From the IMG/VR virus record IMGVR_UViG_3300042885_000725, positions 5,591-69,590 of that record: a stretch of 64,000 nucleotides of DNA; one strand, 5' to 3'. Every line of letters starts with the position of its first letter. The stretch's first letter is position 1. Below, one piece after another: positions 40,345-57,343 of the stretch. The position numbers and the translations under genes are program-made. Source of the stretch: a virus. Below the pieces are notes generated by a model that was given only the letters and a program-made list of their open reading frames with translations, searched no databases and was not told the origin of the DNA.

Positions 40345-40398
40345 TCAAAATATTTAGTTAGTTGAAGTTTGTTGGTTTATTCTTACAACTACGGACAG

Positions 40399-40426: not shown

Positions 40427-40431
40427 ATAGC

Positions 40432-40439
40432 TATATTTG
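40432..40439 (+). promoter_or_regulatory. Bacteroidota -7 promoter element
   Basis: TATATTTG just after a terminator. Confidence 0.5.
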
Positions 40440-40468
40440 CTAATATAACTAATTTTTACTATATTATT

Positions 40469-41050
40469 ATGAGAGAGTTTAAGACACCTGATTTATCAGC
40501 ACCGAGATATAGACCTGAAGTATTTCATCTCTTAGACAAAGAGTTCTTTGATGGATTTAAAAAGAAGTATCCTAGATATGCTAAGTATGAAAACAGCATG
40601 TTAAAGAATATTGCAAAGACATTCAATAGAACTGTATATAACATGGTGGTTGATACTAGAGATGGTGTTCAACTACCTGATCAAATTGGATGGCTTTTTG
40701 TAGGAACATGTCAACAAAGTAAGAAAAGAAATGTTGACTTCTCTAAATCCAGACAGTATGGTGTAGAAGTAAGTAATAATAATTTTGCTACGGATGGAAA
40801 GTTAGCAAAGATATTTTTTACAAACTATGCACTAAAACATAAAATGAAAAATAGAGAGTACTGGGGTTTTGTTGCTTGTAGAGATTTTAAAAGACTAGTT
40901 GCTAAATCATATCCGGAAAACTGGAATATGTACAGAGTAGTAGAGAACAATAAAAAAATCAAAAAACTATATCAACAAATATACTATGCAGGTAAGGAAG
41001 CCTTACTTACACAAAATGCTCTTAAAACATATAATGAATTTGAATTATGA
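40469..41050 (+). CDS. IHF-like protein (crAss-like tail-block IHF homolog)
   Basis: I..TFN..V...V...DGVQLP..IG.L pattern; position before ring/muzzle genes. Confidence 0.55.
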   Translation: MREFKTPDLSAPRYRPEVFHLLDKEFFDGFKKKYPRYAKYENSMLKNIAKTFNRTVYNMVVDTRDGVQLPDQIGWLFVGTCQQSKKRNVDFSKSRQYGVEVSNNNFATDGKLAKIFFTNYALKHKMKNREYWGFVACRDFKRLVAKSYPENWNMYRVVENNKKIKKLYQQIYYAGKEALLTQNALKTYNEFEL

Positions 41051-41718
41051 CAACAGTTGGTGAAGCAATATCAAGAATGAGAAACACTCTTAAAGCAGTT
41101 AAAGAAGATCCATTCTTAACTGATAGAGTAATTTATTATTCTCTTATAAAGTATGGTCAAACATTACTTAAAAGAGAAGACAACCAATATAGACTTATGA
41201 AAATAAGTTCTATATTTTCTGTATTACCTTTTGTTGAGCTTATTGATGTAGATAAGATAGAGGCTGGTTGTACTGGAGTATATTCTGGATGTTACTTTAA
41301 AAGAACTAAAACTAAGATCCCATCTATACTCAATGGTATAATGGGACCTATTATACGTACTGTATCTTCAATAGATGGTAGTGAAGTTATGTTTAGAACA
41401 AATCCTAGTACTTGGATTTCTATAACTAAATCTACTACTTTTAAGTATAATAAAAGAAAATACTTTTGGTTCTTAAACGGTTATTTATATCTACCAAATA
41501 TAGATTGGGATGCTATCAGAATAGAGGCCATCTTTGATGGAGATATTACTGCTTACCAATGTGAACCAGAAGAACAGTGTAAACTTAAACAAGATCAACC
41601 ATTTCCATTTCCGGATTATTTATTTTCAGAAATAGAACAGTTTGCTTTAAAAGAATTAACCATGATTGCTCAGATGCCAGTTGATGGAAGTGATGACAGT
41701 CAAAATATTTTAAGATAA
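41047..41718 (+). CDS. putative tail ring protein
   Basis: Synteny; YFWFLNGYLYL...I.AIF..., FPFPDYL pattern. Confidence 0.6.
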   Translation: MTTVGEAISRMRNTLKAVKEDPFLTDRVIYYSLIKYGQTLLKREDNQYRLMKISSIFSVLPFVELIDVDKIEAGCTGVYSGCYFKRTKTKIPSILNGIMGPIIRTVSSIDGSEVMFRTNPSTWISITKSTTFKYNKRKYFWFLNGYLYLPNIDWDAIRIEAIFDGDITAYQCEPEEQCKLKQDQPFPFPDYLFSEIEQFALKELTMIAQMPVDGSDDSQNILR

Positions 41719-42770
41719 TGGATTTCAACTATACACTCCGCTACAGAACATTTGACCAATTAATGGAAGATGTTCAGATTGATCTTCCTAGCTTTGCTTT
41801 GGAGAATATGATTGAGCCACAACAGTTAATTAAACTAGCTAGAAAGATAAACTATGATCTTGGTCTTAGAATTAATCAAACTAAGGAAGTGGTACTAGAC
41901 ATATGTCATGGAAGAGTTAAGCTCCCAGATGACTTCTATGTGTGGAATTTTGGTATGTCTTGTCATGAAAGAACAGAGCATATTGGTTATGATGGTAAAG
42001 TTGGTGGAACTAATATACAAGAAGTACCATATGGTACAGTAAAGTATAAAGAGTTTCCTGGAGGTGTAGATAGTTGTGCTGTAGGAACGGTTAATTGCAG
42101 AACCTGTAATTCTAATCCTTGTAACCACACAGCAGCTTGTGGGTCTAATACACCTATTACAAATACAACTCCTGAGTATGATCCTGAGAATCCTTATGGA
42201 AATACATGTGTAGCCCCTAGAGTATTTATGAATTGTAAAGGAGAATCTTATGAGTTAATTCAAGTTGTACACTCAGGTCTTACAAGAAAATATAATGTGC
42301 TTGTTCAATTAAGAATGAAACCAAGTCAGAATATAGATTGTGAGTGTCCTAACTTATATCACAATGGTCCAGATGAAGGTTGGATTAAAGATGGATTTCT
42401 TTTTACTACTTTTCAAGATGGTCATGTGTATGTAAACTACCAAGGAGAACTACAAGATGAGAATGGAAATTTAATGGTTCCTGATCATCCAAGACTTAAT
42501 GATTACTATGAGTATGCTTTCAAGAAAAGAATTCTTGAAAACTTATATTTAAATGGTGAGGATGTAGCTCAAAGACTACAGGTTATCCTACCAGAGTTAA
42601 AAGATGCTAGAGTGAATGCATTAAGTTTGGTTAATACTCCAAACTTTAAAGAACTAGAACAGGTATGGTGGACAAACAGAAGAGCTCAGTATTCTAAATA
42701 CTATGATATGTTCAAAGCTCCTACTGTTGGAAACTACGCTAGATTGAATTATAATACTAAAGTTATTTAA
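41718..42770 (+). CDS. tail tubular/ring protein (P22 gp4-like) with Cys-rich insertion
   Basis: R..LPDDF..., DG.VYVNY.G...DE.G.LMVPD motifs; directly before the muzzle gene. Confidence 0.65.
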   Translation: MDFNYTLRYRTFDQLMEDVQIDLPSFALENMIEPQQLIKLARKINYDLGLRINQTKEVVLDICHGRVKLPDDFYVWNFGMSCHERTEHIGYDGKVGGTNIQEVPYGTVKYKEFPGGVDSCAVGTVNCRTCNSNPCNHTAACGSNTPITNTTPEYDPENPYGNTCVAPRVFMNCKGESYELIQVVHSGLTRKYNVLVQLRMKPSQNIDCECPNLYHNGPDEGWIKDGFLFTTFQDGHVYVNYQGELQDENGNLMVPDHPRLNDYYEYAFKKRILENLYLNGEDVAQRLQVILPELKDARVNALSLVNTPNFKELEQVWWTNRRAQYSKYYDMFKAPTVGNYARLNYNTKVI

Positions 42771-42771
42771 T

Positions 42772-45700
42772 ATGGCCGACATGCAAGATACTTCCCAAAA
42801 TATAACGGATAGTTTTATAAAGGGTCTAAATAAAGATTCAGATCCTTCTTATGTTACAGACGGTATGTGGACACATGCTGTCAATATGGTTAATAACTCT
42901 AAGACAGGTAAAGTAGGTTCTATATCAAATGAGGCTGCAAACTATTTATGTTTTAATACAGGTACATACATGCCTACTAATGTTACTGAAAAATTAGTAA
43001 TAGGTACAGTATATCTTTTTTCAGATAAATGGATAATTTTTACCGCAGGGCATAATTTAAATGGTCAACCAATCAGCTCTGAAATAGGTTTGTTTCAAGA
43101 AGAAACATGTTCTTATAAGCCTATTGTTATTGATGCTTGTTTAAATTTTGATAAAAGATATTTAATATCTGGTGTATCAAGATTAAAAGAAGATTGTACT
43201 TGGCAAGTGTATTGGTCTGACGGATTAAATCCTGATAGATATTTAAACATTGGAGATCCTCAAACTTGGCCGGGAGCAGATTATTCTTATATTACATCTA
43301 TTGGTGTAAGTGCAAATTACTACCAAGGACCAGGAGCAACTAAAATATTATGGCCAGGAGTACAATGGATAGAAAAATGTGATGTTGTTAATGATTGTAA
43401 CATATGCGTAAATACAAACAAATTAGATTGTGAGCACATAAGATTAGCAAGATTAATGACTACTCCTTGTTTAAACTTAACAAGGGGTCAACAAGGAGGT
43501 ACACTGGCTAACGGAACATATTTTGCTCTTATAGCATATACCATTAAGGGTCAGAAAGTAACTGATTACTTTGCACAAAGTAATTATCAGTTTATATATT
43601 CACCACAAGATCTTCAAGGATCTCTTACGTTAAATATATCAGCAGATAATAAAAACTTTGATGAGTTTCAATTAGTAATAGTAAAGTGTGTTAACCAACA
43701 AACTGTAGCACAGTTAATGGGTATCTATTCAACTAATACATCAACTATAAGTATTGATCAAATTGATAATGGAGGTAATATAACTATACCTCTTGAACAA
43801 TTACCATTACAAACTCCAGTATTTGAAACTTCTGATCAAATGGCAGAGGTTAATAATTATTTACTTAGAGTTGGTCCAAGAAGTAAGTTTGATTTTAATT
43901 ATCAACCTTTAGCTAACTTAATTAAAACTAAGTGGGCTTCTGTAGAATATCCTGGAGATTACTATATGAAAGGTGGTAATAAAACTAACTACATGAGAGA
44001 TGAAGTATATTCATTTTTCATTAGATGGATCTATAACACAGGAGACAAAACATCAACATACCATATTCCAGGAAGACCTCCTAGAGATTTTATTGTTCCT
44101 AATGTAGGTACAAAAGTAGAAGATGAGGATTTAATTGGTAATGTTAATTCATTATATGCTGATGATAAAGTATTTGAAGTATATAATACAGCTAGAATAG
44201 ATAACGCATCTACAGTTGTTGGTACTAAAACTGATGATGGAGGAGAAGTTATAGCAACAGGAGACATGGGTTATTGGCAATCAACTGAAAAGTATCCTGA
44301 TAATAGACCTGATATATGGAACCCATCAGCTCACTGTTGGACAGGTCAAGGTGCAACTATTAATCCAGAAGAATTTGATTTATGTGGTAAACATGTTAGA
44401 CATCATAAATTTCCTGAAGACTATACAACAGATAGTACTTCTGATAAAGTAACACACTTTAGAAGAAATGTTAATACTCAAGATAATGTTAATGATTATT
44501 TCATTAGATTAATGGGTGTATACTTTGAGAATATCACTTTACCAAAAGATAATGACGGTAATGATATACCAGGTATTGCAGGATATGAAATACTTAGAGG
44601 ATCAAGAGAAGGTAATAAAACTATTGTTGCTAAAGGTTTGGTAAACAACTTTAGAACCTATCAAGTTCCTGGTTCAGGTAATATGAGTACAACCGGTCTT
44701 TACCCTAATTATCCGTTTAATACTATACAACCTTTAAGTAATACTTTAGGAACAAATGTGGCTGGATATAATGATCCATTTATTAAAGCTGGTATAAGTT
44801 CATTATATAATCAAACTGTACCAGAAGATATCTTTAGTTTCCATTCACCGGATACTATGATGACTACACCATTTTTATCCACTACAGAATTTAAAACATA
44901 TGGTCCGTTATCAGGATATAGTATTCAAAATTTTAATACACCAACAGACCATCCTAAATTTAAATTACTATCTGATGTTGTAATCATACCTCTTGTATTA
45001 GCGGGTATTATTGAAGCTATCATATCCGCAATAGGTAAAAGAACTGATGTTTCACAAGGTCCTGCTTATCAAGATATGCATATTCCAGAAACTAAAACAG
45101 ATGAAGAACTTAGTGGTTCTGGTGGTGGCGGTGGTGCTTATAGTAATTTTCAAACTAGTGGTACTGGAAACATTAATACATATATGTCTGATATTAAGAT
45201 ATCAGGTAATACTATAGAAACAGTAGATAAACAAGTTACAATACCTTCGGCTGTATCAACTACTATTGGTACTTTTGATGGTTTAGTTAGTGGTTATAAG
45301 AATACTATAGGAACACTGGCTGATGCCATAGTAGGTGGAGGCCAATTAGAAGCAATTTATACAAATGGTGCAAAAAGTAATATATCAAACAATGGTAGTG
45401 TTTATACAGGACGAAGTCTAACTACAGAATGGTCAAGATCAAGTTATTTACCAACAGCTCTAAGTGTTTTTGCAAATGCTGGTTCACTTGCTTATTATTT
45501 TTCAGAAGGTGTTAGAGTAATGTTAAATATAATATATGCTGTAACTAGCTATAAGCAATTTGCATTACAACAAAAAGCATATGGTTTTTATTCCAATATG
45601 GAAAAAAATCCAACTACAGATACTACTAGATTTAAAATGGAAGATGGATTTTATTTAAGAGATAATATTCAATCTGTATCTAGGTATCAAGATAACACAG

Positions 45701-48228
45701 GTGTTTATAGATCATATAACATTAATAATTTAAAAAGATCACCTAAAGTAGTTATAAGAACTAAGAATGGTGCAAATCAAAATAAAGGTCCGAAGTTATT
45801 AACAGGTGATAAATCTTTGACAACATTAGGAACTTTACTACAAGCACAATCTAGTTTTGGATCAGTATTACCACCTGGAACTAATTTACCAGATTTTAAA
45901 TCAGATGTAAATAGAGCTTTTTCATTACCTATTCAAAGTCACTATGGTGCTATAAGAGGTAGAGTAAGAAACCAGTATGGTCAATTAGATTCTATTAAAC
46001 AATTACCAGTAGGAACATGTGAGCAAAAGCTTTCTAATTATACAATTAACCCTGTTGACTTGGTTTGTAACTCTGTAAATATTCATAAAAAAGTTATTTA
46101 TAGATCTCCTGTAATGTTTGGAGGTGATACTTATATAAACAGATACACTGAAAAAGATACAATGTGTTTCTTTTATGATTGGTTATATAATCAACCAGAT
46201 GGTTTTGAGTATAATTATTTTTTAAGAAGTATGATTCCAAATCCAAGATTTAGATTGAATAGTACTTTATATGATTCAAGTGACTTAGCAAGTATATTTA
46301 CAGATTTTGGAGGTTTTGTTTCAGGTGTTAATGCCGCACAAGGTACAGGTTATAAACCATCCCAATTTTATAATTTAGATTACTATGAAAATTCAAGCAA
46401 GAAATATAATTATAGTAATGATACAGCAGCTAACTATCCTGGATTTTTTGTATGTAAAGAATCATATTTTTATTTAGGTGTATCATCAATAAAAGACTTT
46501 TTTGTAGAGTCTGAAGTACTTGTAGATTTTAGAACACAACCTGAAGAAATAGCTAGAAAACATTATAATCCATATAACTTTACAGATTATAATGCTATGT
46601 TTGATACTAACCCAAATATATATGGGGTAAATAGTTACAATCAATATGACTATTCATTAAGTGTATCTAAGTTGTATAATCAATACTTCTCATTAGGTAG
46701 TATACAAAATAGATACTATGATCCTAATGTAGCTGACTTATGTTATACTTACTATCCTAATAGAATTATTTACTCATTGCCTCAACAAGATGAAGCAATA
46801 AAAGATAGCTGGTTTGTTTATTTAGTAAATAACTATAAAGCTTTTAAATCTCAAGTTAGTGGTGTTAAGTCAATAAACAAATCTGGTATTGTAATTACAT
46901 TTAAGAATGATAGTCCTGTAATGTATCAGGGTGTAGATACTCTTCAAACTGAATTAGGTACTAAGGTTACTTTAGGTGACGGAGGTTTATTTAGTCAAGC
47001 ACCACAGCAGTTAACTAATGCTGATAAAGCATATGAGTATGGTGCATCTCAAAATAGACTATCTGTAATATCTACACCGGTAGGTATATTTTACATGTCT
47101 CAAGCGGCTGGTAAAATATTCTCAATTGGTGAAGGTCTGCAAGAGATTTCTCAGCAAGGTATGAAATGGTGGTTCACTTTGTTCTTACCGTACAAATTAT
47201 TACAAGATTTTCCATTGTATCCTTATCAAGATAATCCTGTAGCAGGTATTGGATGTCAAGCAGTATTTGATAATACTAATACCATTCTGTATTTCTGTAA
47301 GAAAGATTATCAACTTAAAGATGCCTACAAAGGAAAAGTAACTTATATCCCACTTAAAGGAGATAATACGGGTGATTACTTTATGATAAATGGTAACATA
47401 ACTGCTAAGTTTAAATTAGGTGATCCAATGTTATTTAGAGATGCTTCTTGGACTGTAAGTTATGACCCTAAGAATCAGTTCTGGATTAGTTTCCATGACT
47501 GGCATCCAGATCTATTAATGCCTACAAAAGATGTATTTATATCTACAAAAGGTACTGGTGGATGGAGACATAATTGGATATGTGACAATTACTGTAATTA
47601 CTATGGTGTAGATTATGCATGTGAAATAGATATTCCAATTGTAACAGGTCAAGCTGTTACTACTACAAGATCAATTGAATATATTCTTGAAGCTTATAGA
47701 AAAACTGATAACTGTGTGGATTCATATCAAGTATTAGATTATAATTTTGATACTGCCGTAGTATATAACTCAGAACAAGTATCAGGTTATTTAAATCTTA
47801 ATATTTATCCTAAGAATGATCTTGTTCTAGCAAGACAGTTTCCAAGAGTTAGTCCTGCTACAGGAACTTCATTTGATATTTTATTTACAAAAGAAGAAAA
47901 TAAATATAGATTTAGTCAGTTCTGGGATATAACTAATAATAGAGGTGAGTTTCCAATTGGTTCTCAATACCCTATTACTCAAAATCAATATATACCCGGA
48001 ACTACAACTTTGATTGGTAATTATTCAAGTGAAAGCACATGGGTTACAGAACCTGATGGTTTCAGAAGAGTATTGAATCAAAATAATCTTGACTATTTAA
48101 AATCAGAATTTGAAAGAAAAAAATTCAGACATTACATGAGTTTTGTTAACTTCAAGAAAAATAAATCTGGTAAAACAAATATTATTTTGAAAATTAATAA
48201 TAGTAAAAATGAAATTTCTCTAAGATAA
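42772..48228 (+). CDS. tail stabilisation / muzzle protein (P22 gp10-like)
   Basis: 1818 aa; F.KGLNKD.D start, YMRDEVYSF.I, FGGDTYI.RY, WTVSYD....WISFH. Confidence 0.75.
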   Translation: MADMQDTSQNITDSFIKGLNKDSDPSYVTDGMWTHAVNMVNNSKTGKVGSISNEAANYLCFNTGTYMPTNVTEKLVIGTVYLFSDKWIIFTAGHNLNGQPISSEIGLFQEETCSYKPIVIDACLNFDKRYLISGVSRLKEDCTWQVYWSDGLNPDRYLNIGDPQTWPGADYSYITSIGVSANYYQGPGATKILWPGVQWIEKCDVVNDCNICVNTNKLDCEHIRLARLMTTPCLNLTRGQQGGTLANGTYFALIAYTIKGQKVTDYFAQSNYQFIYSPQDLQGSLTLNISADNKNFDEFQLVIVKCVNQQTVAQLMGIYSTNTSTISIDQIDNGGNITIPLEQLPLQTPVFETSDQMAEVNNYLLRVGPRSKFDFNYQPLANLIKTKWASVEYPGDYYMKGGNKTNYMRDEVYSFFIRWIYNTGDKTSTYHIPGRPPRDFIVPNVGTKVEDEDLIGNVNSLYADDKVFEVYNTARIDNASTVVGTKTDDGGEVIATGDMGYWQSTEKYPDNRPDIWNPSAHCWTGQGATINPEEFDLCGKHVRHHKFPEDYTTDSTSDKVTHFRRNVNTQDNVNDYFIRLMGVYFENITLPKDNDGNDIPGIAGYEILRGSREGNKTIVAKGLVNNFRTYQVPGSGNMSTTGLYPNYPFNTIQPLSNTLGTNVAGYNDPFIKAGISSLYNQTVPEDIFSFHSPDTMMTTPFLSTTEFKTYGPLSGYSIQNFNTPTDHPKFKLLSDVVIIPLVLAGIIEAIISAIGKRTDVSQGPAYQDMHIPETKTDEELSGSGGGGGAYSNFQTSGTGNINTYMSDIKISGNTIETVDKQVTIPSAVSTTIGTFDGLVSGYKNTIGTLADAIVGGGQLEAIYTNGAKSNISNNGSVYTGRSLTTEWSRSSYLPTALSVFANAGSLAYYFSEGVRVMLNIIYAVTSYKQFALQQKAYGFYSNMEKNPTTDTTRFKMEDGFYLRDNIQSVSRYQDNTGVYRSYNINNLKRSPKVVIRTKNGANQNKGPKLLTGDKSLTTLGTLLQAQSSFGSVLPPGTNLPDFKSDVNRAFSLPIQSHYGAIRGRVRNQYGQLDSIKQLPVGTCEQKLSNYTINPVDLVCNSVNIHKKVIYRSPVMFGGDTYINRYTEKDTMCFFYDWLYNQPDGFEYNYFLRSMIPNPRFRLNSTLYDSSDLASIFTDFGGFVSGVNAAQGTGYKPSQFYNLDYYENSSKKYNYSNDTAANYPGFFVCKESYFYLGVSSIKDFFVESEVLVDFRTQPEEIARKHYNPYNFTDYNAMFDTNPNIYGVNSYNQYDYSLSVSKLYNQYFSLGSIQNRYYDPNVADLCYTYYPNRIIYSLPQQDEAIKDSWFVYLVNNYKAFKSQVSGVKSINKSGIVITFKNDSPVMYQGVDTLQTELGTKVTLGDGGLFSQAPQQLTNADKAYEYGASQNRLSVISTPVGIFYMSQAAGKIFSIGEGLQEISQQGMKWWFTLFLPYKLLQDFPLYPYQDNPVAGIGCQAVFDNTNTILYFCKKDYQLKDAYKGKVTYIPLKGDNTGDYFMINGNITAKFKLGDPMLFRDASWTVSYDPKNQFWISFHDWHPDLLMPTKDVFISTKGTGGWRHNWICDNYCNYYGVDYACEIDIPIVTGQAVTTTRSIEYILEAYRKTDNCVDSYQVLDYNFDTAVVYNSEQVSGYLNLNIYPKNDLVLARQFPRVSPATGTSFDILFTKEENKYRFSQFWDITNNRGEFPIGSQYPITQNQYIPGTTTLIGNYSSESTWVTEPDGFRRVLNQNNLDYLKSEFERKKFRHYMSFVNFKKNKSGKTNIILKINNSKNEISLR

Positions 48229-51200
48229 TGTATAATAAGAAAGCTCTATCTAAAGCTACAGCTGAGTTGGACAAAGCTAAAGCTCCTAAGAAACCTAAAG
48301 ATATAATCACTGATCCAATGGGTCAGTGGAAATATCCTGGTTTACCTACTAGAATTCCTGGTAATGACATCACTATGCAAGGAGTAGGCTATCCTGTATT
48401 AGGTGTGGCTAATAATGGTCAGAGAAAGATAATGCTTCCGGGAGCAGACTACACTTTTCCTGGAGCAGAGTATGTAGATGAATATCCTCAAATGAGAAAA
48501 GGAGGAGAGAGAAAAAGAAGAAAGACTAAAAGCATATCTGGTACTAATAAGATCATGCAAAAAAATCCTTTGTTTAAAGATTATAAAAACAGAGTATATG
48601 ATCCAAATGTAGATTACTTTCAAAAAGGTGGTGTAAAGGGTAACTGGAAAGTTAGAGAAGAACTTTATGATGGGGAAGATGAATACTTTAGAGCTAACCC
48701 ACATGTAGGTGGTATGGCTGCTGAAGATGATACAGTTATTTTAAATCCTTATTCTAAATTATCTAAAGCTGAAAAAGATGCAATAATTAAAAATGAAAAA
48801 GCCAGGCTTACTATGAGAAATGGTTACGCTAGACCAGATTTCAATTTAACAGAAGAACAAGCAAAAGCATTTGAAAATTATTCACCAGACTTACAAGATC
48901 AAAAAGAGACTATTGTAGGAAGAATATTGTCAGGTGATCCTAGTCAAGGTAATGCTACTAAGCAACAAAGAGAATATGCTGAAGAACTACAAAGATTCAT
49001 GGATATGCATAAGGACACTGTATTAACAAATACATCAGGTCCAAGAAACTTTCAAGATGGTGGTCCACAAAATAATACTTCTGAAGAAAGATTTAAAAAA
49101 AGATTAATGAAAAGATATCCTGGCATGCAGGGTGTTTATGGAACTGACGGTGAAAATTTAAGTATTATCAAAGACCCAAACTATAAGGCTTCAGATCATG
49201 GTTTTGGAAATATAGAATTTATGTTTCCTGGTCAAGATTCTGTAACTTATACTGATGATTATCAATATAAAAATCCTACACCAGATCAATATACTACTGT
49301 TTATAACCCTAAAGGTGCAAACAGAGGTGATGTATTTTTAGACATGATGCATGGAATGAGAGATGATGAAGAGTATCAAAAACTATTACAAAACTTTGGA
49401 GCTACTGTAAAAAAAGGAAGAGGACGAGATATGGATCATTGGTATAATGTAGAGGCTCAAGAAAATCCTAATTATGTAGAAGATGGTAGAGAAGTTTGGG
49501 ATAACAATTATATTGATGGTATTTTAAGAGCTGAGTTAGCTAATAAAACTATAGGAAGAAGAGTAAAAGGAAATGACTATAAGTTAGAAAGAAGAGGGTC
49601 TACAGATGAAATAAAACAAGCTGCCAAAGACATAAAAAAATATCTAAAGACTCCACAAAAACCTAAACAATATGTAGGACCTGTTATTGAAAATAATGGT
49701 TTTATTACTCCTGAATATGAAGATGGTGGTTATATAGAAGCAGATCTTACAGATGATGAAATAGAAGAATACAGAAAAGGCGGTTACATAGTAGAAGACA
49801 TATCTGTACCAGAACTTAATCAAGCTCAGAAAGGTGGGTCTAACACTACAGTTCACACTGATAAAAATGGTACTAAGACTACCAAGTATAGAGATTCTCA
49901 TAATGTTGTTCATTATAAAGTTGAAACCAAAGATGGTAAAGTTTATAATAAACAAGACAAAAGTCTTTCAGTAGGACAAGCAGCAAATGATACAAGGACA
50001 CCTACGGAAAGAGCAATTGAAATGCAGAATTTTTATAAAGCTCATCCTGGTTTACAACAAGATTATTTAAAACCTGGTACAGCTGCTTACATAGAAGCCC
50101 ACGATGGACCAATGCAATCTGTAGATGACTTCTGGACATTACCTATAGGTATGACAAGTGCGGGAGTTAAAGGTACAGTTGGTTTAGCAAAAGGTTTAAC
50201 TTCTCTTGGTCGTAATGCTCTTAAATCATCATTAGTTCAATCAGGTAAAGCTGGAACAAAAGCTTTACTTAATAAGTCTTTGGTTAAAAGTTTACCTGGT
50301 TCAAGTATTAATAATCTAGTAGCTTCAGGATTTGCTGGTACTGCATTAACTGATATAGTAACTGGTAAAGTTGCGGAACCTTGGAAAAAAGCTAATAAGT
50401 CTGGTAAAGGTTCTGACTATGCGGATGCTGTTGCTGAAAATATGTTTACAGCTTTAGATGCTTATCCTTTATATAATGCAGCAGGTAAAGGTCTTAAACA
50501 ATTAGGTAAATATGCTAAAACTTTACCAGGGAAACTAAGTAAAACAAAAGCAAATTCAATACCAAAAAGAGCAACTAGTATAGGTTTAGATACGTACTCA
50601 GGAGATAGTTTTACACCAATACGTATTGGAGGTAAAAAATATAAACATGCTGGTCAAGAATGGTATAATGTTGATCCAGGAGATTATCCAGGAATGACTT
50701 GGGAAGAAACACAAAAACAAGGTTTACAAGATGCTGGTGAAAGTTTAAATTATTTGTTTAAAAAGAATCCTAATTATAGTAAAGAAATATTTGATAATGT
50801 AGGTGACTTTGATTATAAACAGTTTTCTGAAGGAGATGAAGCCTTGAAAAAATTAAAGTCTGCTATTACTTCAGAACCAATTATAGGTAAAGCTGATGTT
50901 TACAGTAATACTGAACTACAGAAAAAAATTCAAAACTATAAAAACTGGAGAAATGAAATAGATGAAATATATAAAGAATATAAAAAACTTGATCCTTCAG
51001 GTAATTCAAGTAATAGTGATTTACGTAATTTACATCCTCATTTGAAAAAAAGATGGGATGCTTTAAAAAATATTGATAAATCAATAACAGATAAGTTTAT
51101 TACTAAAGAGCAAGAGAAACTTATACGTGAAAATTATCCTGAACTTATATCTACATTAGATACAAGAAATGATTTAAGTAGACATTCTCTTAAAATATTA

Positions 51201-51428
51201 GGAGAAGATAAGTTAAAAAAACCAATGCCACAAGAAGCAATTGATATTTTAAAATCACTGAATTTATACAAAAAACCTAATAAGAATTTGCTTAGGTTTG
51301 AACCAGGTAAAATGAATAAATTAGGAGGATTGGTTAAAGCTCAAAAAGGCGGTATAGTTTTAAAACTTACTTCTAAAGAAATTCAAGATTATATTAAACA
51401 AGGTTATATAGTTGAGGATGTTGAGTAA
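48228..51428 (+). CDS. putative virion cargo protein, modular with xxxGG junctions
   Basis: Follows the muzzle gene; N-terminal DPMGQWKYPG..TRIP..ITMQGV domain; multiple QKGG/QDGG motifs. Confidence 0.65.
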   Translation: MYNKKALSKATAELDKAKAPKKPKDIITDPMGQWKYPGLPTRIPGNDITMQGVGYPVLGVANNGQRKIMLPGADYTFPGAEYVDEYPQMRKGGERKRRKTKSISGTNKIMQKNPLFKDYKNRVYDPNVDYFQKGGVKGNWKVREELYDGEDEYFRANPHVGGMAAEDDTVILNPYSKLSKAEKDAIIKNEKARLTMRNGYARPDFNLTEEQAKAFENYSPDLQDQKETIVGRILSGDPSQGNATKQQREYAEELQRFMDMHKDTVLTNTSGPRNFQDGGPQNNTSEERFKKRLMKRYPGMQGVYGTDGENLSIIKDPNYKASDHGFGNIEFMFPGQDSVTYTDDYQYKNPTPDQYTTVYNPKGANRGDVFLDMMHGMRDDEEYQKLLQNFGATVKKGRGRDMDHWYNVEAQENPNYVEDGREVWDNNYIDGILRAELANKTIGRRVKGNDYKLERRGSTDEIKQAAKDIKKYLKTPQKPKQYVGPVIENNGFITPEYEDGGYIEADLTDDEIEEYRKGGYIVEDISVPELNQAQKGGSNTTVHTDKNGTKTTKYRDSHNVVHYKVETKDGKVYNKQDKSLSVGQAANDTRTPTERAIEMQNFYKAHPGLQQDYLKPGTAAYIEAHDGPMQSVDDFWTLPIGMTSAGVKGTVGLAKGLTSLGRNALKSSLVQSGKAGTKALLNKSLVKSLPGSSINNLVASGFAGTALTDIVTGKVAEPWKKANKSGKGSDYADAVAENMFTALDAYPLYNAAGKGLKQLGKYAKTLPGKLSKTKANSIPKRATSIGLDTYSGDSFTPIRIGGKKYKHAGQEWYNVDPGDYPGMTWEETQKQGLQDAGESLNYLFKKNPNYSKEIFDNVGDFDYKQFSEGDEALKKLKSAITSEPIIGKADVYSNTELQKKIQNYKNWRNEIDEIYKEYKKLDPSGNSSNSDLRNLHPHLKKRWDALKNIDKSITDKFITKEQEKLIRENYPELISTLDTRNDLSRHSLKILGEDKLKKPMPQEAIDILKSLNLYKKPNKNLLRFEPGKMNKLGGLVKAQKGGIVLKLTSKEIQDYIKQGYIVEDVE

Positions 51429-51486
51429 ATTTTTAAAGTTTAAACAATAAATTTATTTTTAGTATATTAAATTATAATCTTTACAA

Positions 51487-54075
51487 ATGGAAAGAAGAAC
51501 AGTTAGAATTTACAAAGCTCCAAACGGACAAGGTGAATATATAAATAAGACAGGTCAATTTTTGAAGAAAGCACAAATGGGTGCTGAAACAAGAAGTGAT
51601 GAAGTCATGCAGCAAAAACAATTAGAACCTATAATGCAGTTTGTAGCGGGAGCATTGGATAATGACATGGAGCCTGAAGAAATCATGAAGATATTGGTAT
51701 CTAAAGGTCTTCCTAAAGAACTAGTATATTCAGTTATATCAAATGTAATGCAAGAGCGTGAGGCTCCAGTAGAAGAGGAAGAAGAAAGTAAGAAAGAACA
51801 ACCTGCTGAAGAATCTAAAATTGGACAATCAGAGTTTCAACCTATTGGTGAAGAAGAAGCTCCTGTAGAAGAAGATCAGGGAATGGATTATTATAATTCA
51901 TATGCTGATGAACCAGAACCAACAATTGAAGAAGAGTATCAAGATGGTGGACCAATTCTTTCTTATGGTGATTTAGAAAATAACCAAGAAGAAGAATCTA
52001 TTGATATGTCTCCGGAGTTAGTTCAGAAATTAACTTCACTTAAAGATTTTATAGACAAAGCTCCTTCAAATGATTTTGAAGGTTTTGATAAAGATATTAG
52101 TGAATATGAAGGTAATTATACACCGGTTGAATGGGATGTATTAGGAGATGGTTATGGTTACTATAAAAAAGGAGGTTCTAAAAAGAACTTTACAAAGAAT
52201 GTACTAGCTCTTATTAAAAAACAAGAAGGTGGTGATAACCAAGACATTGCTCAAGGTAATAAAAAAGATACTTTAACAAATGAAGTTTCTAAAATTAAAT
52301 CTTCATTCACTGACAAATTAAAAGAAGTATCAAATAAAGCTGCTATAGATTCTATCTATGAAAAGATGATGAAGTCTAATGATCCTGAGTTAATGCAATC
52401 TGCACAAGAACTTGCTCAAAACAGACAGAAGTCAAGTCAAATGGGAAGCTTTGAACCTGTAGCACAACAAGGTGGTTATGTAGGAGAAGAGCAACCTGAC
52501 ATGTTTAGTCAAGGTGGTTTTGATATGCCTGAAGCACAAAAAGGAGGAATGCAAAAACTTGGTGACTTCTTATTAGGAGAAAAATATACTACAGCTAATA
52601 ATCCATATACTGTTAAGACTGGTGCTTTGTATAAAGATCCTTTGACAGGTTTAACTCCTGTAGCAAGAACTGTACATAAGAGAGGTATATTAGGAAGACC
52701 TAAAAAATATACTGATTATTATACTAAATCAAGTAAAGTTGATCAAGACTTTATAAATAATTTTTCTGAAGGTAAACCTAAAGCAAATACTAAAAAGTCT
52801 GAAGATATAAAAGTTGATTCAAAAAAACGTGAGTATAATATACCTGATGAGCAATATGAAAAATTGTCTAGAAGAGATAAAAGACAAGAAAGAAAGTGGG
52901 CTAAGTTAGAAAATGAAACAAAAGAATTTAACAAAGGTGTTAATTTTGTTAATGTTGATGAGGAAGAGAGAAAGCAAAAAGAAAAAGAACTTAAAGCAGC
53001 AATGAAAGATGCTGCCGCATGGTCTACTAAAATTGGTATGGATACTCCAGAATGGTGGGATAATGGAACTACTGAAGCTGCATTACCAGAAGGACTTTCT
53101 CCAGAAGATATTGAATACCTTGATGCTCAAGATATTGAACTTGAAAAAGCTAATATGATTCCTATTATGGAAAGGCAAAAAGCAGCTAAAAATAGATTGA
53201 AATTATACAATCAAGATAAATCAGATGAAATCTATGCTGCTAAAATTAGAGATAATGCATATAAGCAATTTAGTAATGCAGGAGATTTTAGACCTGATCT
53301 TTCTAAATTTATACAAAACCCTGAAGATATTAAAAGACAAAAAGAAGAAGAGGAAGCAAGAAAACAAATGCAAGAAGAAGGTAGAGAAGCTGAGTATGAA
53401 AAAAGATACGGTGGTTTACCAAAAGCTCAAACTGGTCCAACAGTTAAGTCTGGAACAAGTGCTTTAAATCCCGCATCTGATCCTACTGCTAATTCAGGTA
53501 ATTTAGCTGGTATGTTAAAACCACAAAATAATCCTAATTCATTTATGGGTGCGTCTGCTCCATTTATGAATCAAAATGCACCTGTTAATAAAGATGCTAA
53601 AGTTGATGCAATTCAAATGGATCCTAATCAAACTAAAGATCAAAAAATTACTTCTTTAGATTTTGGTAATCCTGATGAAGATAACTTAGTTGCTCAAGAT
53701 GTAGAAACAAAAAGAAACTTTGATGGTACTAACTTTAATAATAAATTTAATGCTGCTGCTGATATGTTTACAGGCTTTATGGGTAGACTAGATTCTGCTA
53801 AGAAAGAAAAAGAAATGTATCAAAATAACTTTAATGCTGATAGTCTTTATGGTGTATCTACTAATAAAGACAAAGGAGATTATGTAGCTTATGGTCAACA
53901 AACAGGAATGTTTAGACCTAATGAAACAGGTCAAGAAACTATGGGTAGATTTGCATATGGTCAATACGGTGGTTACATGCAAGAGGGAGGATATACTGAG
54001 GGAGATGAAGTTGATATGACTGAAGAAGAACTAGCAGAATTTATTGCTAACGGAGGTGAAGTAGAATATTTATAA
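51487..54075 (+). CDS. putative virion cargo protein (acidic, xxxGG motifs)
   Basis: Low-complexity acidic protein with about ten GG motifs. Confidence 0.65.
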   Translation: MERRTVRIYKAPNGQGEYINKTGQFLKKAQMGAETRSDEVMQQKQLEPIMQFVAGALDNDMEPEEIMKILVSKGLPKELVYSVISNVMQEREAPVEEEEESKKEQPAEESKIGQSEFQPIGEEEAPVEEDQGMDYYNSYADEPEPTIEEEYQDGGPILSYGDLENNQEEESIDMSPELVQKLTSLKDFIDKAPSNDFEGFDKDISEYEGNYTPVEWDVLGDGYGYYKKGGSKKNFTKNVLALIKKQEGGDNQDIAQGNKKDTLTNEVSKIKSSFTDKLKEVSNKAAIDSIYEKMMKSNDPELMQSAQELAQNRQKSSQMGSFEPVAQQGGYVGEEQPDMFSQGGFDMPEAQKGGMQKLGDFLLGEKYTTANNPYTVKTGALYKDPLTGLTPVARTVHKRGILGRPKKYTDYYTKSSKVDQDFINNFSEGKPKANTKKSEDIKVDSKKREYNIPDEQYEKLSRRDKRQERKWAKLENETKEFNKGVNFVNVDEEERKQKEKELKAAMKDAAAWSTKIGMDTPEWWDNGTTEAALPEGLSPEDIEYLDAQDIELEKANMIPIMERQKAAKNRLKLYNQDKSDEIYAAKIRDNAYKQFSNAGDFRPDLSKFIQNPEDIKRQKEEEEARKQMQEEGREAEYEKRYGGLPKAQTGPTVKSGTSALNPASDPTANSGNLAGMLKPQNNPNSFMGASAPFMNQNAPVNKDAKVDAIQMDPNQTKDQKITSLDFGNPDEDNLVAQDVETKRNFDGTNFNNKFNAAADMFTGFMGRLDSAKKEKEMYQNNFNADSLYGVSTNKDKGDYVAYGQQTGMFRPNETGQETMGRFAYGQYGGYMQEGGYTEGDEVDMTEEELAEFIANGGEVEYL

Positions 54076-54085
54076 TCTTAATAAG

Positions 54086-57000
54086 ATGAAAGTAAGAATT
54101 AAAAAAGTACCGCAAGCTAGAACAGGATACCAAGTACAAGGTTCTTTAGCTAATGATGTGCCAGCTATGGGTGGTGCAGATTACAATACTTATATAGGTA
54201 AACCAAGTCTAAAAGCTAGTAAGTATATGACGGCTGTTCCTAGAGAAGAAGCTAATCTAGAAGCAGAAGGAGGAGAAACTGTATATGGTGATATCAATGG
54301 TGATGGAATGCCAGAACACAAAACTATCAAAGGTCCTAGACACTCTGGCGGTGGTGTTCCATTAAACTTACCTGATGACACTTTTATATACAGTGACTTC
54401 AGAGGTATGAACATTAAAGAACCTGAGTTCTTACAAATGTTTGGTAAAGGTGGTAAGGGTAACAAAAGTTATACCCCAGCTGCACTTGCTAAACAATATG
54501 ATATTGAGAAGTACAGAAAGATTCTTCAAGATCCAGATTCAGATAAAATTGATAGAAAGACTGCGGAGTTGATGATTAAGAATTATCAAAATAAACTTGC
54601 TGCATTAGCGTTAGTACAAGAAGGTAAGAAAGGATTTCCTCAAGGTATGCCAGCTGTAGCAAAACCAATGACTGCAGAAAATCAATATACTGAAGATACA
54701 TTTGTTGATCCTTCTGTAAAGCAATTTGCTTCTCAGATAGATGGTAAGTTGAAAGAAGCAGAACAAAATGAAAATACTGCAGAACAAGATCCGGATTTTG
54801 CTCAACAAGCTCAACAAGCTCAAGAGATGAATGAAGGACAACCTGTTGCTCAACCAGGAGAAATGGAACAACCGATGGCACAATACGGTATGGCTATGGG
54901 TGGATATGATCTACCTTTTGCACAATCAGGTATAGAATTAGGTCCTATTTATACACCAAAGTCTGATGATTACAATTATGACAGAAATCAACCTGGTATG
55001 CAAGAGTACCTTAAAACTATTCAAAGATATAATGAGTTAAGAGGTAAACCTGAATTTGTTCCTGTTGGAGAAGGACCATTAGATAAAAACCAGACGAGAG
55101 AGTATAGGAATTTAATATATGATATAAATGAACATTATGGTCATGGAACTGCGTATGATCCAGAAACTGGAGAACCTATACCTCATAAAAAACTTACACC
55201 AGAAGAACAATTAAAAATGTATAAACAAAATGTGGAAGATTGTCCTTGCATGAAAAAAGTAATTGTACAAGGAAAGTCTCAAAATAAATGTGTACCCTGT
55301 GAACAATTAGAAATGGCTCAGTATGGTATGTCCATGGGAGGTTATGATTTACCTTATGGTGATGATATGCCAGAAGCTGAATATGGTATGTCTATGGGTA
55401 TTACTTCTAAGAACTATATGGGAAGACCTAAGTCTGCTATGTATGCTAGAGGTGGTGCTTTAAGAACATATCAAGGTGCTGAAGGTGCTAGTTCTACTGG
55501 TGCTGCCGGAGGTGCTCCTGCAGCTACAACAGATGATGGTACATTAGATGTTACAGGTTTAGATCCTGATGCATCTAATAAAAAATATCAAATATGGATG
55601 AAACACAATCCAGGTAAGGAACCTAAAATAATGTTAAATGGTAAACCTGCTAAATATGTACCACCTACAAAACCTACAGGTGACTTACCTTTGTCAGATT
55701 TAAAAGCAATAAATGAAATAGGCTATAAAATGTTAGAGAAAGAAATAACTAATCCTAATTCAAAAGTTAGAGCTACATTAATTGAAGAAGCTCAAGCAGC
55801 ATATAAAGACCCTAAAACAGGTGGTAAAATTGGTATAAGTAAATACAGAAAAAATAGAGCTGTTCCAACTGGTGATGAAATTATAAATGGAATCTTAACT
55901 GGAAAGAAAAGAAATGATGCAATAAAAGAATCCGGTATGGATATGAGATATCTTAATAATGGTGCTACAGCTTTTGATACTTATGACGAATTAAAAAAGA
56001 GAGGTATTGTTACATCACAAGATGAATATGATAAAAAGAAAAAAGAATATGAATCTAAAGGTTGGGATAATAAAGATAAAATTGCAAAAACATTAAAAAT
56101 TACTTTACCAACTCCCGATCAAACTTTGATAGAACAAACTGGTGCACATGGTATTGCTAGAATGCAAAATAATAAAGTTAAAGGTGCATATAATAAATGG
56201 GGAGATGATGATGCATATCAATTAGAAACTTTATTTGGTAGAGGAGATCATGATATACAAACTAATACTGGTGGTAATGATGAAACTGAAATGGCTGCCT
56301 TATATGGAGATAATTATAACACATTATCACCTATTGAAGGTTTTGCTGGTCAATCAACATTAGCACATGGGGCAAATCCAAATACAGCTCAAGGAAAGTT
56401 TGAAGCTGTACCTGAAGAAAAGAAAGAACAAGTTAATGCCGAACCATGTCCTTGTACAAGAGCTGACGGAAGTACTTATGAGCTTCCTAGAAATGCTGAT
56501 GGTACTTGTCCTCCATGTGAAACAGAAGGTGAAGCAACAACTCCTCAAAAAACAGAACCTAAAATGTGGTTGCAAGATAAAATCAAAACAGCAGGTGCTT
56601 TTGGTGATTTAATGAGTGCTAAGAAATACACGCCTTGGGCTGCTAAGTATGATTTGAGAACACCAAAACCTACATTCATGGATCCAACAAGAGAACTTGC
56701 TGCTAATGCTGAACAAGCAAATATCCAAACTCAAGCTTTGGGTCAGTTTGCAGGTCCTCAAGCTTTGTCAGCTAGATCTTCTGGTGTAATGGGTGCAGCT
56801 AGTAAAAATGCGGCAGATGTATTAGCTAAATACAATAATGCAAATGTTAACATTGCTAACCAGTTTGAATCAAATATTGCTAACATTGAGAATCAGGAAC
56901 AACAATTAAATACAGCTTCTCAACAAAAATTATATGATCAGAATACTATTTCTAATCAACAGTATGATAATACTAAGAGAGCATTAAGAAATAATTTAAT

Positions 57001-57343
57001 GAATCAAACTACATCAGGTATAACAAACAAGATGAAAACAGATGCCTTAAATCAATTGTATCCACAATATCAAGTACATCCTGAAACAGGTGGGGGAGTT
57101 GATTATGATCCAACTAAAGCTAAACAAATTAAACATGAAATGTCTGGGGATAATGAGCAAGCATATTATGAAGAATGTTCTAAGCGTTATAAAGATGAAG
57201 CAACAATTCAAAAATGTGTGGATTCTAAAATGAAAAATGCTCCTTCAGGTGGAGGTAACTCTGGTAGAAATGCTTTTGATGCACATAATGCTAAAGAAGG
57301 AGGGTTTGTTTATGGTGATGTAACTTATCCATTTATACTATAA
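54086..57343 (+). CDS. putative virion cargo/ejection protein
   Basis: EAEGGET...GPRHSGGGVP..L....IYSD domain, AQYGM.MGGY repeats and an N/Q-rich coiled-coil C-terminus. Confidence 0.7.
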   Translation: MKVRIKKVPQARTGYQVQGSLANDVPAMGGADYNTYIGKPSLKASKYMTAVPREEANLEAEGGETVYGDINGDGMPEHKTIKGPRHSGGGVPLNLPDDTFIYSDFRGMNIKEPEFLQMFGKGGKGNKSYTPAALAKQYDIEKYRKILQDPDSDKIDRKTAELMIKNYQNKLAALALVQEGKKGFPQGMPAVAKPMTAENQYTEDTFVDPSVKQFASQIDGKLKEAEQNENTAEQDPDFAQQAQQAQEMNEGQPVAQPGEMEQPMAQYGMAMGGYDLPFAQSGIELGPIYTPKSDDYNYDRNQPGMQEYLKTIQRYNELRGKPEFVPVGEGPLDKNQTREYRNLIYDINEHYGHGTAYDPETGEPIPHKKLTPEEQLKMYKQNVEDCPCMKKVIVQGKSQNKCVPCEQLEMAQYGMSMGGYDLPYGDDMPEAEYGMSMGITSKNYMGRPKSAMYARGGALRTYQGAEGASSTGAAGGAPAATTDDGTLDVTGLDPDASNKKYQIWMKHNPGKEPKIMLNGKPAKYVPPTKPTGDLPLSDLKAINEIGYKMLEKEITNPNSKVRATLIEEAQAAYKDPKTGGKIGISKYRKNRAVPTGDEIINGILTGKKRNDAIKESGMDMRYLNNGATAFDTYDELKKRGIVTSQDEYDKKKKEYESKGWDNKDKIAKTLKITLPTPDQTLIEQTGAHGIARMQNNKVKGAYNKWGDDDAYQLETLFGRGDHDIQTNTGGNDETEMAALYGDNYNTLSPIEGFAGQSTLAHGANPNTAQGKFEAVPEEKKEQVNAEPCPCTRADGSTYELPRNADGTCPPCETEGEATTPQKTEPKMWLQDKIKTAGAFGDLMSAKKYTPWAAKYDLRTPKPTFMDPTRELAANAEQANIQTQALGQFAGPQALSARSSGVMGAASKNAADVLAKYNNANVNIANQFESNIANIENQEQQLNTASQQKLYDQNTISNQQYDNTKRALRNNLMNQTTSGITNKMKTDALNQLYPQYQVHPETGGGVDYDPTKAKQIKHEMSGDNEQAYYEECSKRYKDEATIQKCVDSKMKNAPSGGGNSGRNAFDAHNAKEGGFVYGDVTYPFIL

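Follow-up and report, generated by a model that had tools for sequence, protein, structure and literature searches.

A Gly-Gly pentapeptide and a terminal mini-domain shared by putative cargo proteins encoded downstream of the muzzle gene in a crAss-like phage

Main finding

A stretch of 64,000 nucleotides from the viral record IMGVR_UViG_3300042885_000725 (hereafter the window; bases 5591-69590 of a 69.6-kb contig with a CheckV completeness of 58%) was analysed for a pentapeptide motif ending in Gly-Gly, which recurs in the proteins encoded directly downstream of the muzzle gene. The first two of these proteins, P0001 (1066 amino acids, aa) and P0002 (862 aa), were strongly enriched in the motif, and by sequence comparison they belong to a very large, unannotated and polymorphic family built on a fixed chassis with variable payloads. 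P0001 is probably a polymorphic cargo or ejection protein. The motif and an associated mini-domain of about 30 aa are tentatively read as a hinge-plus-recognition signal loading modules into the virion. Mosaic, enzyme-carrying ejection proteins are a known kind, the pentapeptide and the mini-domain are previously undescribed, and literature searches found no paper on either of the two.

Motif enrichment in the window and its relatives

An earlier, sequence-only reading of the window had listed motif strings of the loose form [MFYA]xxGG in three adjacent post-muzzle open reading frames (ORFs), and all the strings and coordinates it gave proved exact. The motif was counted with this loose pattern and with a strict one, [MFYA][QRKE][KDEQR]GG, using 2000 shuffles as controls. 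With the strict pattern, 7 motifs were found in P0001 (0.13 expected) and 5 in P0002 (0.11 expected), and neither count was reached by any shuffle. The third protein, P0003 (1085 aa), contained one (0.14 expected; reached by 268 of the shuffles) and was not enriched. Loose counts were 7 against 1.34 expected in P0001 (0/2000 shuffles), 6 against 1.00 in P0002 (3/2000) and 6 against 1.88 in P0003 (21/2000), the last being a weak enrichment. The proposed enrichment of single proteins over shuffled controls was thus borne out, and the claim that the motif is common to all three proteins held for P0001 and P0002 and only weakly for P0003. It had also been stated that portal, major capsid protein (MCP) and muzzle lack a comparable density. 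This was confirmed on 19 other large window ORFs totalling 12026 aa, among them TerL, portal, MCP and muzzle, which had no strict motif (0.47 expected) and 11 loose ones (11.06 expected); the strict count in the muzzle protein was 0.

The number of bare GG pairs in P0001 was near expectation (10 against 8.5), and the signal lies in the residues preceding GG. Codons at the motifs vary, being mostly GGT GGT; the motif is therefore a protein-level and not a DNA-level signal, and a Shine-Dalgarno-like AGGAGG element was ruled out on the same grounds.

The strict pattern had been drawn up after the window was inspected, and the independent test is therefore provided by the relatives. Non-redundant ORFs were taken from 30 IMG/VR loci. 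Homologues of P0001 (the ORF1 family) carried 69 strict motifs in 17249 aa, with at least one in each of the 21 proteins, and homologues of P0002 (ORF2 family) carried 45 in 13348 aa, with all 14 proteins positive. The ORF3 family, to which P0003 belongs, had 6 in 14119 aa (5 of 17 proteins), the muzzles had 1 in 39316 aa, and all remaining ORFs had 10 in 50885 aa (6 of 115 proteins); by position, several of those six ORFs are ORF2-slot proteins left unclassified by BLAST. In a complete 120.8-kb relative with 124 ORFs (G002), whose ORF1 and ORF2 are ~41% identical to P0001 and P0002, the strict motif occurred solely in ORF1 (4), ORF2 (1) and a 131-aa basic protein (3).

Motifs outside the mini-domains follow the consensus Y/M/F/A at -3, Q/K at -2 and K/D/E at -1, then GG, with a weak preference for S/A at +1. 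Conservation is one-sided there, positions -3 to -1 and GG being kept and those from +1 onward nearly free. Some GG pairs are spaced 18-19 aa apart, namely 500/501, 518/519 and 536/537 in P0001 (49716-49838) and 229/230 and 248/249 in P0002 (52162-52233); the stretch between them is predicted to be helical in two of the three intervals.

The mini-domain and the polymorphic family

The mini-domain was defined by a regular expression and then by an iterated hidden Markov model (HMM; profile A3). It spans ~30 aa and has the form GG-x(2-8)-[ED]-L-[TS]-x-x-E-I-x-x-Y-x-x-x-G-[YG]-x-V-E-[ED]-hydrophobic. The GG within it forms a helix-to-strand turn and alternates with QG or NG in alignment A3. A six-frame search of the whole contig found it solely at P0001 aa 497-525 and 1038-1065 and at P0002 aa 830-862. 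It was not found in crAss001, in Cellulophaga phage phi4:1 or in any GenBank phage (tblastn of a 49-aa stretch, E<=1), and no Pfam or PHROG model matched it. A complex prediction with two mini-domain copies scored 0.00 against a mark of 0.42, which is no evidence either way.

A profile search of 1.84 billion cluster representatives gave 1185 matches at E<=1e-3, of which 392 had E<=1e-10. Among the best 149 of the 1185, 148 had 2-4 copies of the mini-domain, and in 128 a copy lay no more than 5 aa from the C-terminus. The same 149 representatives contained 515 strict pentapeptides where 12.9 were expected, and 248 against 11.4 when mini-domains were left aside.

Minimal members (208 and 261 aa) have nothing but the chassis, in the order N-domain, MRKGG, basic linker to YYQDGG, mini-domain 1 with 'ISVP.L..AQxGG', and C-terminal mini-domain. 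In larger members the added material follows YQDGG and AQxGG. Payloads were surveyed with Pfam in 41 of the 149 listed proteins (every second one within a size limit). The domains found were SET in 6, SLT, Phage_lysozyme2, Phage_lysozyme and PG_binding_1 in 2 each, and VanY, LysM, DUF2272 and DUF7210 in 1 each. The exchangeable payload of the earlier reading is supported because the family shares a fixed chassis and carries variable payloads, SET, SLT, lysozyme and VanY domains among them, and the motif-bearing chassis is all that ORF1 relatives have in common.

In SET-bearing members (P0015, P0044, P0069, P0080, P0093, P0096 and P0150 of the library) the SET domain stands in place of the N-domain, and in 6 of 7 a strict motif ends 15-17 aa past the Pfam SET match. 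These N-terminal, lysine methyltransferase-like modules suggest an injected protein-modifying enzyme. P0015 also gave a weak histone H1-like HC2 match, which was under the cut-off.

Architecture of P0001, P0002 and P0003

P0001 is laid out as an N-domain, two basic linkers, an insert, mini-domain 1, a payload and the C-terminal mini-domain (Table 1). No Pfam or PHROG family was matched by P0001, P0002 or P0003, no Pfam family by seven ORF1 relatives, and tblastn of the three proteins against GenBank phages gave no match. ORF1 relatives are 363-2241 aa long in the loci, and those among the library representatives span 208 to ~3000 aa. Only islands are common to them, and in P0001 these are aa 1-93, aa 94-135, the block around aa 497-537 and the final ~30 aa. 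In alignment A1 (18 sequences), 33 of the 35 invariant columns fall in aa 24-87. Homology to many relatives ends at aa 88-93, where the N-domain finishes, some relatives carrying the SET domain instead, and homology to at least 12 relatives ends at aa 135-137. A conserved linker segment, 'SRSLEATNKLF...DPN..Y[FY]QDGG', is present in the representatives. Both mini-domains were matched by the HMM, the internal one at aa 497-525 (independent E-value, i-E, 1.8e-14; alignment A3) and the C-terminal one at aa 1038-1065 (i-E 5.4e-15), and G519 and G536 are invariant in A1.

The inserted material of P0001 comprises 360 aa from after FQKGG (aa 135) to YEDGG (aa 501) and a block of 500 aa between AQKGG (537) and AQKGG (1042). 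For the payload (aa 538-1036) the ESM Atlas gave no match at or above 0.9, and P0001 is without a recognisable payload family; a PT-TG lead at 0.83 was rejected as chance level.

The P0002 mini-domain was matched at aa 830-862, the last residues of the protein (i-E 1.4e-12; alignment A3). Six GG pairs of P0002 (229/230, 329/330, 642/643, 828/829, 834/835 and 856/857) are invariant among 13 sequences of 24-71% identity. AlphaFold2 models made with family alignments were mostly disordered (mean predicted local distance difference test score, pLDDT, 42.1 for P0001 and 44.4 for P0002) and too poor for a fold search. In these models the motifs lie in coil between predicted secondary-structure blocks, often right at helix ends.

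Motifs had been placed at the boundaries of globular-looking blocks, and insertions and deletions in relatives were expected to end at them. Apart from the coil positions in these poor models, this found some support in the ORF1 family, in which 27.7% of 537 homology endpoints lay no more than 5 aa from a motif, where random positions gave 5.5%, a clustering that is partly built in because the motifs sit in conserved islands. It was not supported in the ORF2 family, in which 10 of 84 indel boundaries lay within 5 aa against 11.3% at random.

One ORF1 homologue (L006:10001-16726) has 2241 aa; its aa 1492-1519 form a complete 'C-terminal' mini-domain, after which come EMQSGG and ~720 further residues. 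By its sequence it looks like a fusion of two cargo genes.

P0003 carries variants of its own, of which AQYGMxMGG (twice), AEYGMSMG (once) and PQARTG are conserved in its family. Collinear but weak matches (E 0.001 and 0.007) connect it with gp040, a virion protein of phage phi4:1, and BLASTP against crAss001 gp45 gave nothing significant (best E 0.83). By eye, its N-terminal domain had seemed to resemble the domain with which gp45 binds the portal; this was unsupported, as a profile of the N-terminal domain gave 0 matches in the PDB, which includes gp45.

Small basic proteins of the head module

The motif also occurs in two head-module proteins that the sequence-only reading had not listed, P0004 and P0005. 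P0004 is a small basic Gly-rich protein with MKCGG, MQSGG, MKKGG, FKKGG and KKMGG. Three motifs count as strict, MKKGG and FKKGG among them, and MQSGG falls outside with S at -1. In an alignment with its G002 homologue nearly all columns are identical and every motif is retained, whereas ORF1 and ORF2 of the two phages are only ~41% identical; among the 124 ORFs of that genome, this homologue is the sole one besides ORF1 with at least two strict motifs. In the ESM Atlas P0004 fell in an unannotated viral cluster. The gene before it encodes P0005, and the G002 neighbour at that position begins PKAQLG. P0004 and P0005 may be internal DNA-associated proteins.

Gene order and window features

The window has a GC content of ~31%, with nearly all genes on the plus strand. 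It belongs by sequence to a crAss-like, muzzle-bearing podovirus, because TerL, portal, MCP and a PF25731 muzzle are present. The nearest isolates by muzzle, at ~24-27% identity, are Cellulophaga phages phi4:1 and phi17:2, a Leptolyngbya phage and Flavobacterium phages. The muzzle served as the synteny anchor; a homologue of it lies immediately 5' of the ORF1 homologue in 28 of the 30 related loci.

Table 1. Positions of the genes, motifs and mini-domains in the window.
Feature	Position	Strand	Remarks
TerL	15392-17605		
Portal	17608-20337		
MCP	21727-23346		
P0005	25880..26278	+	132 aa; small basic; begins MKKMQAGGTK; repeated KKG.TT pattern
P0004	26285..26677	+	130 aa; small basic, Gly-rich; K+R 20%, D+E 3%, 5 Cys; head module
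Muzzle	42772..48228	+	1818 aa; Pfam PF25731 crAss_MUZ, E 4.3e-23; PHROG virion structural protein
P0001	48228-51428	+	1066 aa; first post-muzzle ORF
P0001, conserved N-terminal domain	48228..48506	+	aa 1-93; last residues MRKGG (48492-48506)
P0001, basic linker	48507..48632	+	aa 94-135; terminal FQKGG (48618-48632)
P0001, FQDGG	49050..49064	+	aa 275-279; within lineage-specific insert aa 136-496; low-pLDDT coil
P0001, YEDGG, mini-domain 1 (YIEADLTDDEIEEYRKGGYIVEDI) and ISVPELNQAQKGG	49716..49838	+	aa 497-537; three GG pairs 18 aa apart
P0001, AQKGG and C-terminal mini-domain (IVLKLTSKEIQDYIKQGYIVEDVE)	51339..51425	+	aa 1038-1066
P0002	51487-54075	+	862 aa; second post-muzzle ORF
P0002, YQDGG	51937		
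P0002, YKKGG and KQEGG	52162 and 52219		flanking a helix
P0002, AQQGG	52462		
P0002, FSQGG	52504		
P0002, AQKGG	52534		
P0002, KRYGG-LPKAQTG	53401-53436		
P0002, GQYGG, MQEGG and C-terminal mini-domain (YTEGDEVDMTEEELAEFIANGGEVEYL)	53959..54072	+	aa 825-862
P0003	54086-57343	+	1085 aa; third post-muzzle ORF
P0003, PQARTG	54113		variant
P0003, AQYGMAMGG	54878-54904		variant
P0003, AQYGMSMGG	55316-55342		variant
P0003, YARGG	55442		variant
P0003, AKEGG	57290		variant

Several other ORFs of the window were examined. Between portal and MCP, 20428-21702 encodes a 424-aa acidic, Glu/Lys/Gln-rich helical protein without a family match, probably the scaffolding protein. A 176-aa protein at 25337-25867 matches DUF6321 (E 5e-25), which in PHROGs is the C-terminus of much larger phage proteins. 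The adjacent ORFs at 8190-9443 and 9613-10890 (417 and 425 aa) have GG contexts in the same order (VW[NT]GG, NS[TN]GG) and are probably paralogues; the G002 region matching this pair matches tail-spike and virion-structural PHROGs. The last ORF, 60520-63999, is incomplete at the contig end (its G002 counterpart has 2398 aa), and because it leaves the contig, the RNA polymerase-like giant proteins and any enzyme encoded beyond it are absent from the window.

Comparison with crAss001 and phi4:1

In crAss001 the post-muzzle slot is occupied by the cargo proteins C1 (gp45) and C2 (gp46), in the same gene order as in the window. According to the published structure, both are largely unstructured, with separate short segments docked inside the tail barrel and at the portal (Bayfield et al. 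2023, PMC10172136). For gp45, residues 214-245 are described as resolved by cryo-electron microscopy in the tail barrel and residues 425-552 on the portal wing, and the protein is taken there to be intact, bridging 420 Å through the portal (PMC10172136). We found that gp45 contains A[FY]GG four times (0.105 expected; 0/5000 shuffles), a pattern that was picked post hoc, and the generic [FYM].{0,2}GG nine times (3.4 expected; 43/5000 shuffles). Segment 214-245 is flanked by AYGG (207-210) and AFAEGG (259-264), and segment 425-552 is bracketed by NAFGG (424-428) and FAYGG (559-563). The modelled segment 425-552 opens with AFGG; that site is therefore ordered and not cut directly after GG.

C1 and C2 resemble the window proteins in lying directly behind the muzzle, in being largely unstructured and, for gp45, in having an aromatic-GG motif of its own. 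They differ in that crAss001 lacks the mini-domain and its motif lacks the Gln/Lys position, and the window phage has three post-muzzle proteins, two of them from a family absent in GenBank phages, where crAss001 has C1 and C2. No sequence homology of P0001, P0002 or P0003 to gp45 or gp46 was found, and the best BLASTP match between the ORF at 57404 and gp46 had E 0.36.

Phage phi4:1 has gp040 and gp041 at the post-muzzle position, and its record (NC_021788) notes their presence in virions by tandem mass spectrometry proteomics. Using a pattern fixed beforehand, [FYMA]Q.GG, four motifs were counted in gp040 (NFQAGG, SYQNGG, TFQIGG and KFQSGG), where 0.078 were expected and none of 5000 shuffles reached this number. 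Muzzles and other neighbours in the crAss001 and phi4:1 comparison were not enriched. The gene position is the same as in the window, whereas phi4:1 has no mini-domain and identity is ~25% even in the muzzle. From gene position and from relatives with proteomics, P0001, P0002 and P0003 are probably located in the virion interior.

Search for a protease

The sequence-only reading had proposed that the proteins are polyproteins cut at, or recruited to the prohead by, the Gly-Gly sites, and had named a C39-, C48- or C5-like or another prohead protease as the enzyme to look for. No such enzyme turned up. Peptidase_C39, C5 (adenain), C48, S77 and S78 were found in 0 of 5 complete relatives, with C5 and C48 (clan CE) searched at E<=1. 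Pfam scans of 86 G002 ORFs (82 of 100-1200 aa, three giant ORFs and one boundary ORF) gave no protease except lysins (Peptidase_M15_3, Glucosaminidase) and a DUF2201_N metallopeptidase and VWA protein in the replication region. No protease was among the PHROG matches listed (25 of 44 and 25 of 35 matched families). The ORF at 20428-21702 was considered and rejected as a protease, being acidic, helical, scaffold-like and without a family match.

No HExxH string was found in the window ORFs from 42772 to 63999. In five relatives (37-85% identity) LHEF[SA]HP and a downstream EE are conserved in a protein of ~1950-2630 aa in the virion gene block, a region that lies past the end of the window's contig. 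The G002 version (L035:2295-8225, G002 40295-46228) has 1977 aa, with the motif near aa 211, LysM at 1654-1693 and no Pfam zincin match. A preprint describes a zincin-like protease domain in crAss-like virion proteins of the gp65 type, adjacent to the RNA polymerase, and calls fused polyproteins 'likely cleaved' (10.1101/2020.03.07.982082). By this analogy the conserved HExxH domain is the sole candidate protease. A further giant of G002 (L040:496-11289, G002 29496-40292; 3598 aa) contains two HExxH strings, and its aa 3235-3316 match a circularly permuted YpsA SLOG domain (PF12694, E 7e-7).

Proposed role as a loading and docking signal

Under the reading that we tentatively prefer, the post-muzzle genes would encode virion-internal cargo or ejection proteins composed of four kinds of element. 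These would be an N-terminal domain of ~90 aa or a SET domain instead; short basic linkers, each with a terminal (Tyr/Phe/Met/Ala)-(Gln/Lys/Arg/Glu)-x-Gly-Gly; mini-domains of ~30 aa, one internal and one C-terminal; and exchangeable payload cassettes between the other elements. Gly-Gly would act as a flexible hinge, and the patch preceding it would be recognised in trans, as would the end tag. Each module would dock separately in the head and tail lumen, like the segments of crAss001 cargo C1, and the hinges would let the chain thread through the tail during ejection. Both the docking role and the absence of cleavage are inferred, and the recruitment to the prohead by the motif that had been suggested earlier is plausible.

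Invariant GG pairs amid fast-evolving, apparently disordered sequence are typical of short linear motifs read by a partner, and P0001, P0002 and the basic P0004 carry the same motif without other similarity. The reading also draws on the enrichment in relatives and representatives, the chassis-only minimal members and the strict motif close behind SET in 6 of 7 members. The aromatic-GG sites around the resolved segments of gp45, the four motifs of gp040 and the failure of the searches above to detect a GG-type or prohead protease count in its favour as well.

Several points weigh against a docking role. No binding partner is known, and the virion location was itself deduced from gene position and relatives. 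The one-sided conservation, free from +1, is what one would sooner expect of a protease site than of a docking motif, the short pre-motif N-termini of small basic proteins such as P0005 (MKKMQAGG) are reminiscent of propeptides, and by analogy a GG site followed by a terminal tag resembles a removable targeting signal. The lack of a tie between motif and indel boundaries in the ORF2 family points the same way. The giant protein with the conserved HExxH domain is encoded in the same gene block of the relatives, and because about half of the G002 ORFs have no family match, there is room for a novel protease.

Alternative explanations

The first alternative, and the main rival, is polyprotein processing, in which an endoprotease would cut the motifs, either behind the Gly-Gly pair or inside it, while the head assembles or later. 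Payload enzymes would thereby be released, the N-domain and the C-terminal tag removed after targeting, and the small basic proteins turned into peptides. The protease responsible would come from the host or be a phage enzyme not yet recognised, for which the giant HExxH domain is one candidate. We consider this rather unlikely, and the evidence is divided. Besides one-sided conservation with small residues at the presumed P2 and P1, cleavage is favoured by the position of the sites in coil or disordered linkers, just past a folded domain in 6 of 7 SET-bearing members, and by the occurrence of the motif in proteins unrelated to each other, some of them small and basic with a short N-terminal stretch ahead of it. 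The apparent fusion in L006, which has a complete tag and continues past EMQSGG, fits as well, as do the LHEF[SA]HP...EE domain conserved in five relatives and the zincin-like domain and 'likely cleaved' polyproteins of the preprint (10.1101/2020.03.07.982082). The mass spectrometry described for crAss001 was a bulk tryptic digest of one gel band and is thus silent on whether gp45 is intact (PMC10172136). Against cleavage stand the protease searches, in which C39, C5, C48, S77 and S78 were absent from all five complete relatives and the 86-ORF scans gave only lysins and DUF2201_N, and the gp45 model of 425-552, which contains AFGG. The mini-domain GG, alternating with QG or NG, is moreover a structural turn. 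Of the 12 strict sites in P0001 and P0002, 2 have Pro directly after GG (12 of 515 in the representatives), and cuts at every site would give fragments as small as 18 aa. The whole-length similarity of P0004 to its G002 homologue fits a folded protein better than a peptide precursor.

A broader form of this proposal, drawn by analogy, is that crAss-like and related muzzle-bearing phages mature ejected cargo by endoproteolysis at aromatic-(Gln/Lys)-x-Gly-Gly sites, which would amount to an adenovirus-like, Gly-Gly-directed system in tailed phages; this too is rather unlikely. If it were true, cleavage of gp45 at A[FY]GG would explain why its pieces are seen 420 Å from each other, in the tail barrel as well as at the portal.

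A purely structural role, in which a hydrophobic-x-x-Gly helix C-cap and a Gly-Gly joint serve packing, unfolding and passage through the channel and nothing recognises the motif, is improbable. It would account for motifs at predicted helix ends (in P0002 and P0001, helices 232-246 between GG230 and GG249, 633-640 before GG642, and 509-517 and 846-854 before GG), for the turn in the mini-domain and for the mosaic, conformationally plastic nature described for podovirus ejection proteins (PMC8954989). Neither a cap nor a hinge requires the Tyr/Phe/Met/Ala at -3 and the Gln/Lys at -2 that recur in unrelated, disordered surroundings, however, and other large helical proteins of the virion module, the muzzle and the 1037-aa ORF at 57404, are without the motif. 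The invariance of GG over 24-71% identity is also stronger than a mere linker predicts.

It is very improbable that the chassis segments are kept mainly as recombination joints, giving phages the short stretches of homology needed to exchange payload cassettes. ORF1-family breakpoints do cluster at the motifs, and inserts start after one GG and finish with the next. The clustering is nevertheless expected anyway from motifs in conserved islands, the codons vary, conservation is at the protein level at 24-40% identity, and the motif is also present in the non-mosaic P0004.

Chance or composition, by which Gly- and Lys-rich proteins would yield such pentapeptides by accident and which agrees with the near-expected number of bare GG in P0001, is refuted by the shuffles, of which none reached the strict counts of P0001 or P0002, and by the replication in relatives and in the 149 representatives.

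Comparison with other systems

The consensus of adenain is (M/I/L)-x-G-G-x, with a hydrophobic residue at P4. The window motif is similar in that Gly-Gly follows a hydrophobic residue in several unrelated internal proteins, including small basic ones; it differs in that this residue (Y/M/F/A) would be at P5 if the cut were after GG, with Q/K at P4, and in the virus realm. In adenovirus, core and capsid precursors are matured at GG by adenain, a clan CE enzyme, according to a review (PMC4246237). Double-glycine leaders of the C39 type are N-terminal, 15-30 aa long and end in GG, whereas the window motifs are internal and repeated. Adenovirus, African swine fever virus and bacteriocin leaders, which the sequence-only reading had invoked, are analogies only for this motif.

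Internal proteins of T4 have a cleavable capsid-targeting sequence, with sites ending in Glu and S77-type proteases, and in phiKZ and SPN3US the prohead protease reportedly processes inner-body or ejection proteins. As in those phages, a short signal is shared by internal proteins that would be ejected, and there it is both a head-targeting and a processing mark; unlike theirs, the window tag is C-terminal and ~30 aa long, and no S77-type protease was found in the five complete relatives.

Ejection proteins of the T7 gp16 type carry lytic domains, and polymorphic phage effectors such as MuF fusions are known. The window family likewise combines what appears to be a conserved delivery part with variable enzymes, including the peptidoglycan hydrolases SLT, lysozyme and VanY; it differs in its chassis with repeated pentapeptide and mini-domain and in its SET methyltransferase payloads. 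No MuF or gp16 homology was seen in Pfam and PHROG scans of P0001-P0003 or in Pfam scans of the seven ORF1 relatives. Podovirus ejection proteins have been described as mosaic and conformationally plastic (PMC8954989).

The C-terminal tag on varied cargo, with a putative loading role, is also comparable to encapsulins, without any sequence relation. Their cargo-loading peptides are short conserved C-terminal tags on unrelated cargo inside an HK97-fold shell.

Significance

The results leave two sharp alternatives for the motif, a docking signal or a cleavage site. Together, motif and tag define a family of more than 1000 unannotated protein clusters and predict which parts of its members are chassis and which payload. 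The payloads point to injected SET methyltransferases and wall hydrolases as early tools of host takeover. If the tag suffices for loading, it might be used for packing foreign proteins into phage particles. For the question of how several megadaltons of protein are loaded and ejected by crassviruses and their relatives, the motif and the end tag provide concrete features that can be mutated.

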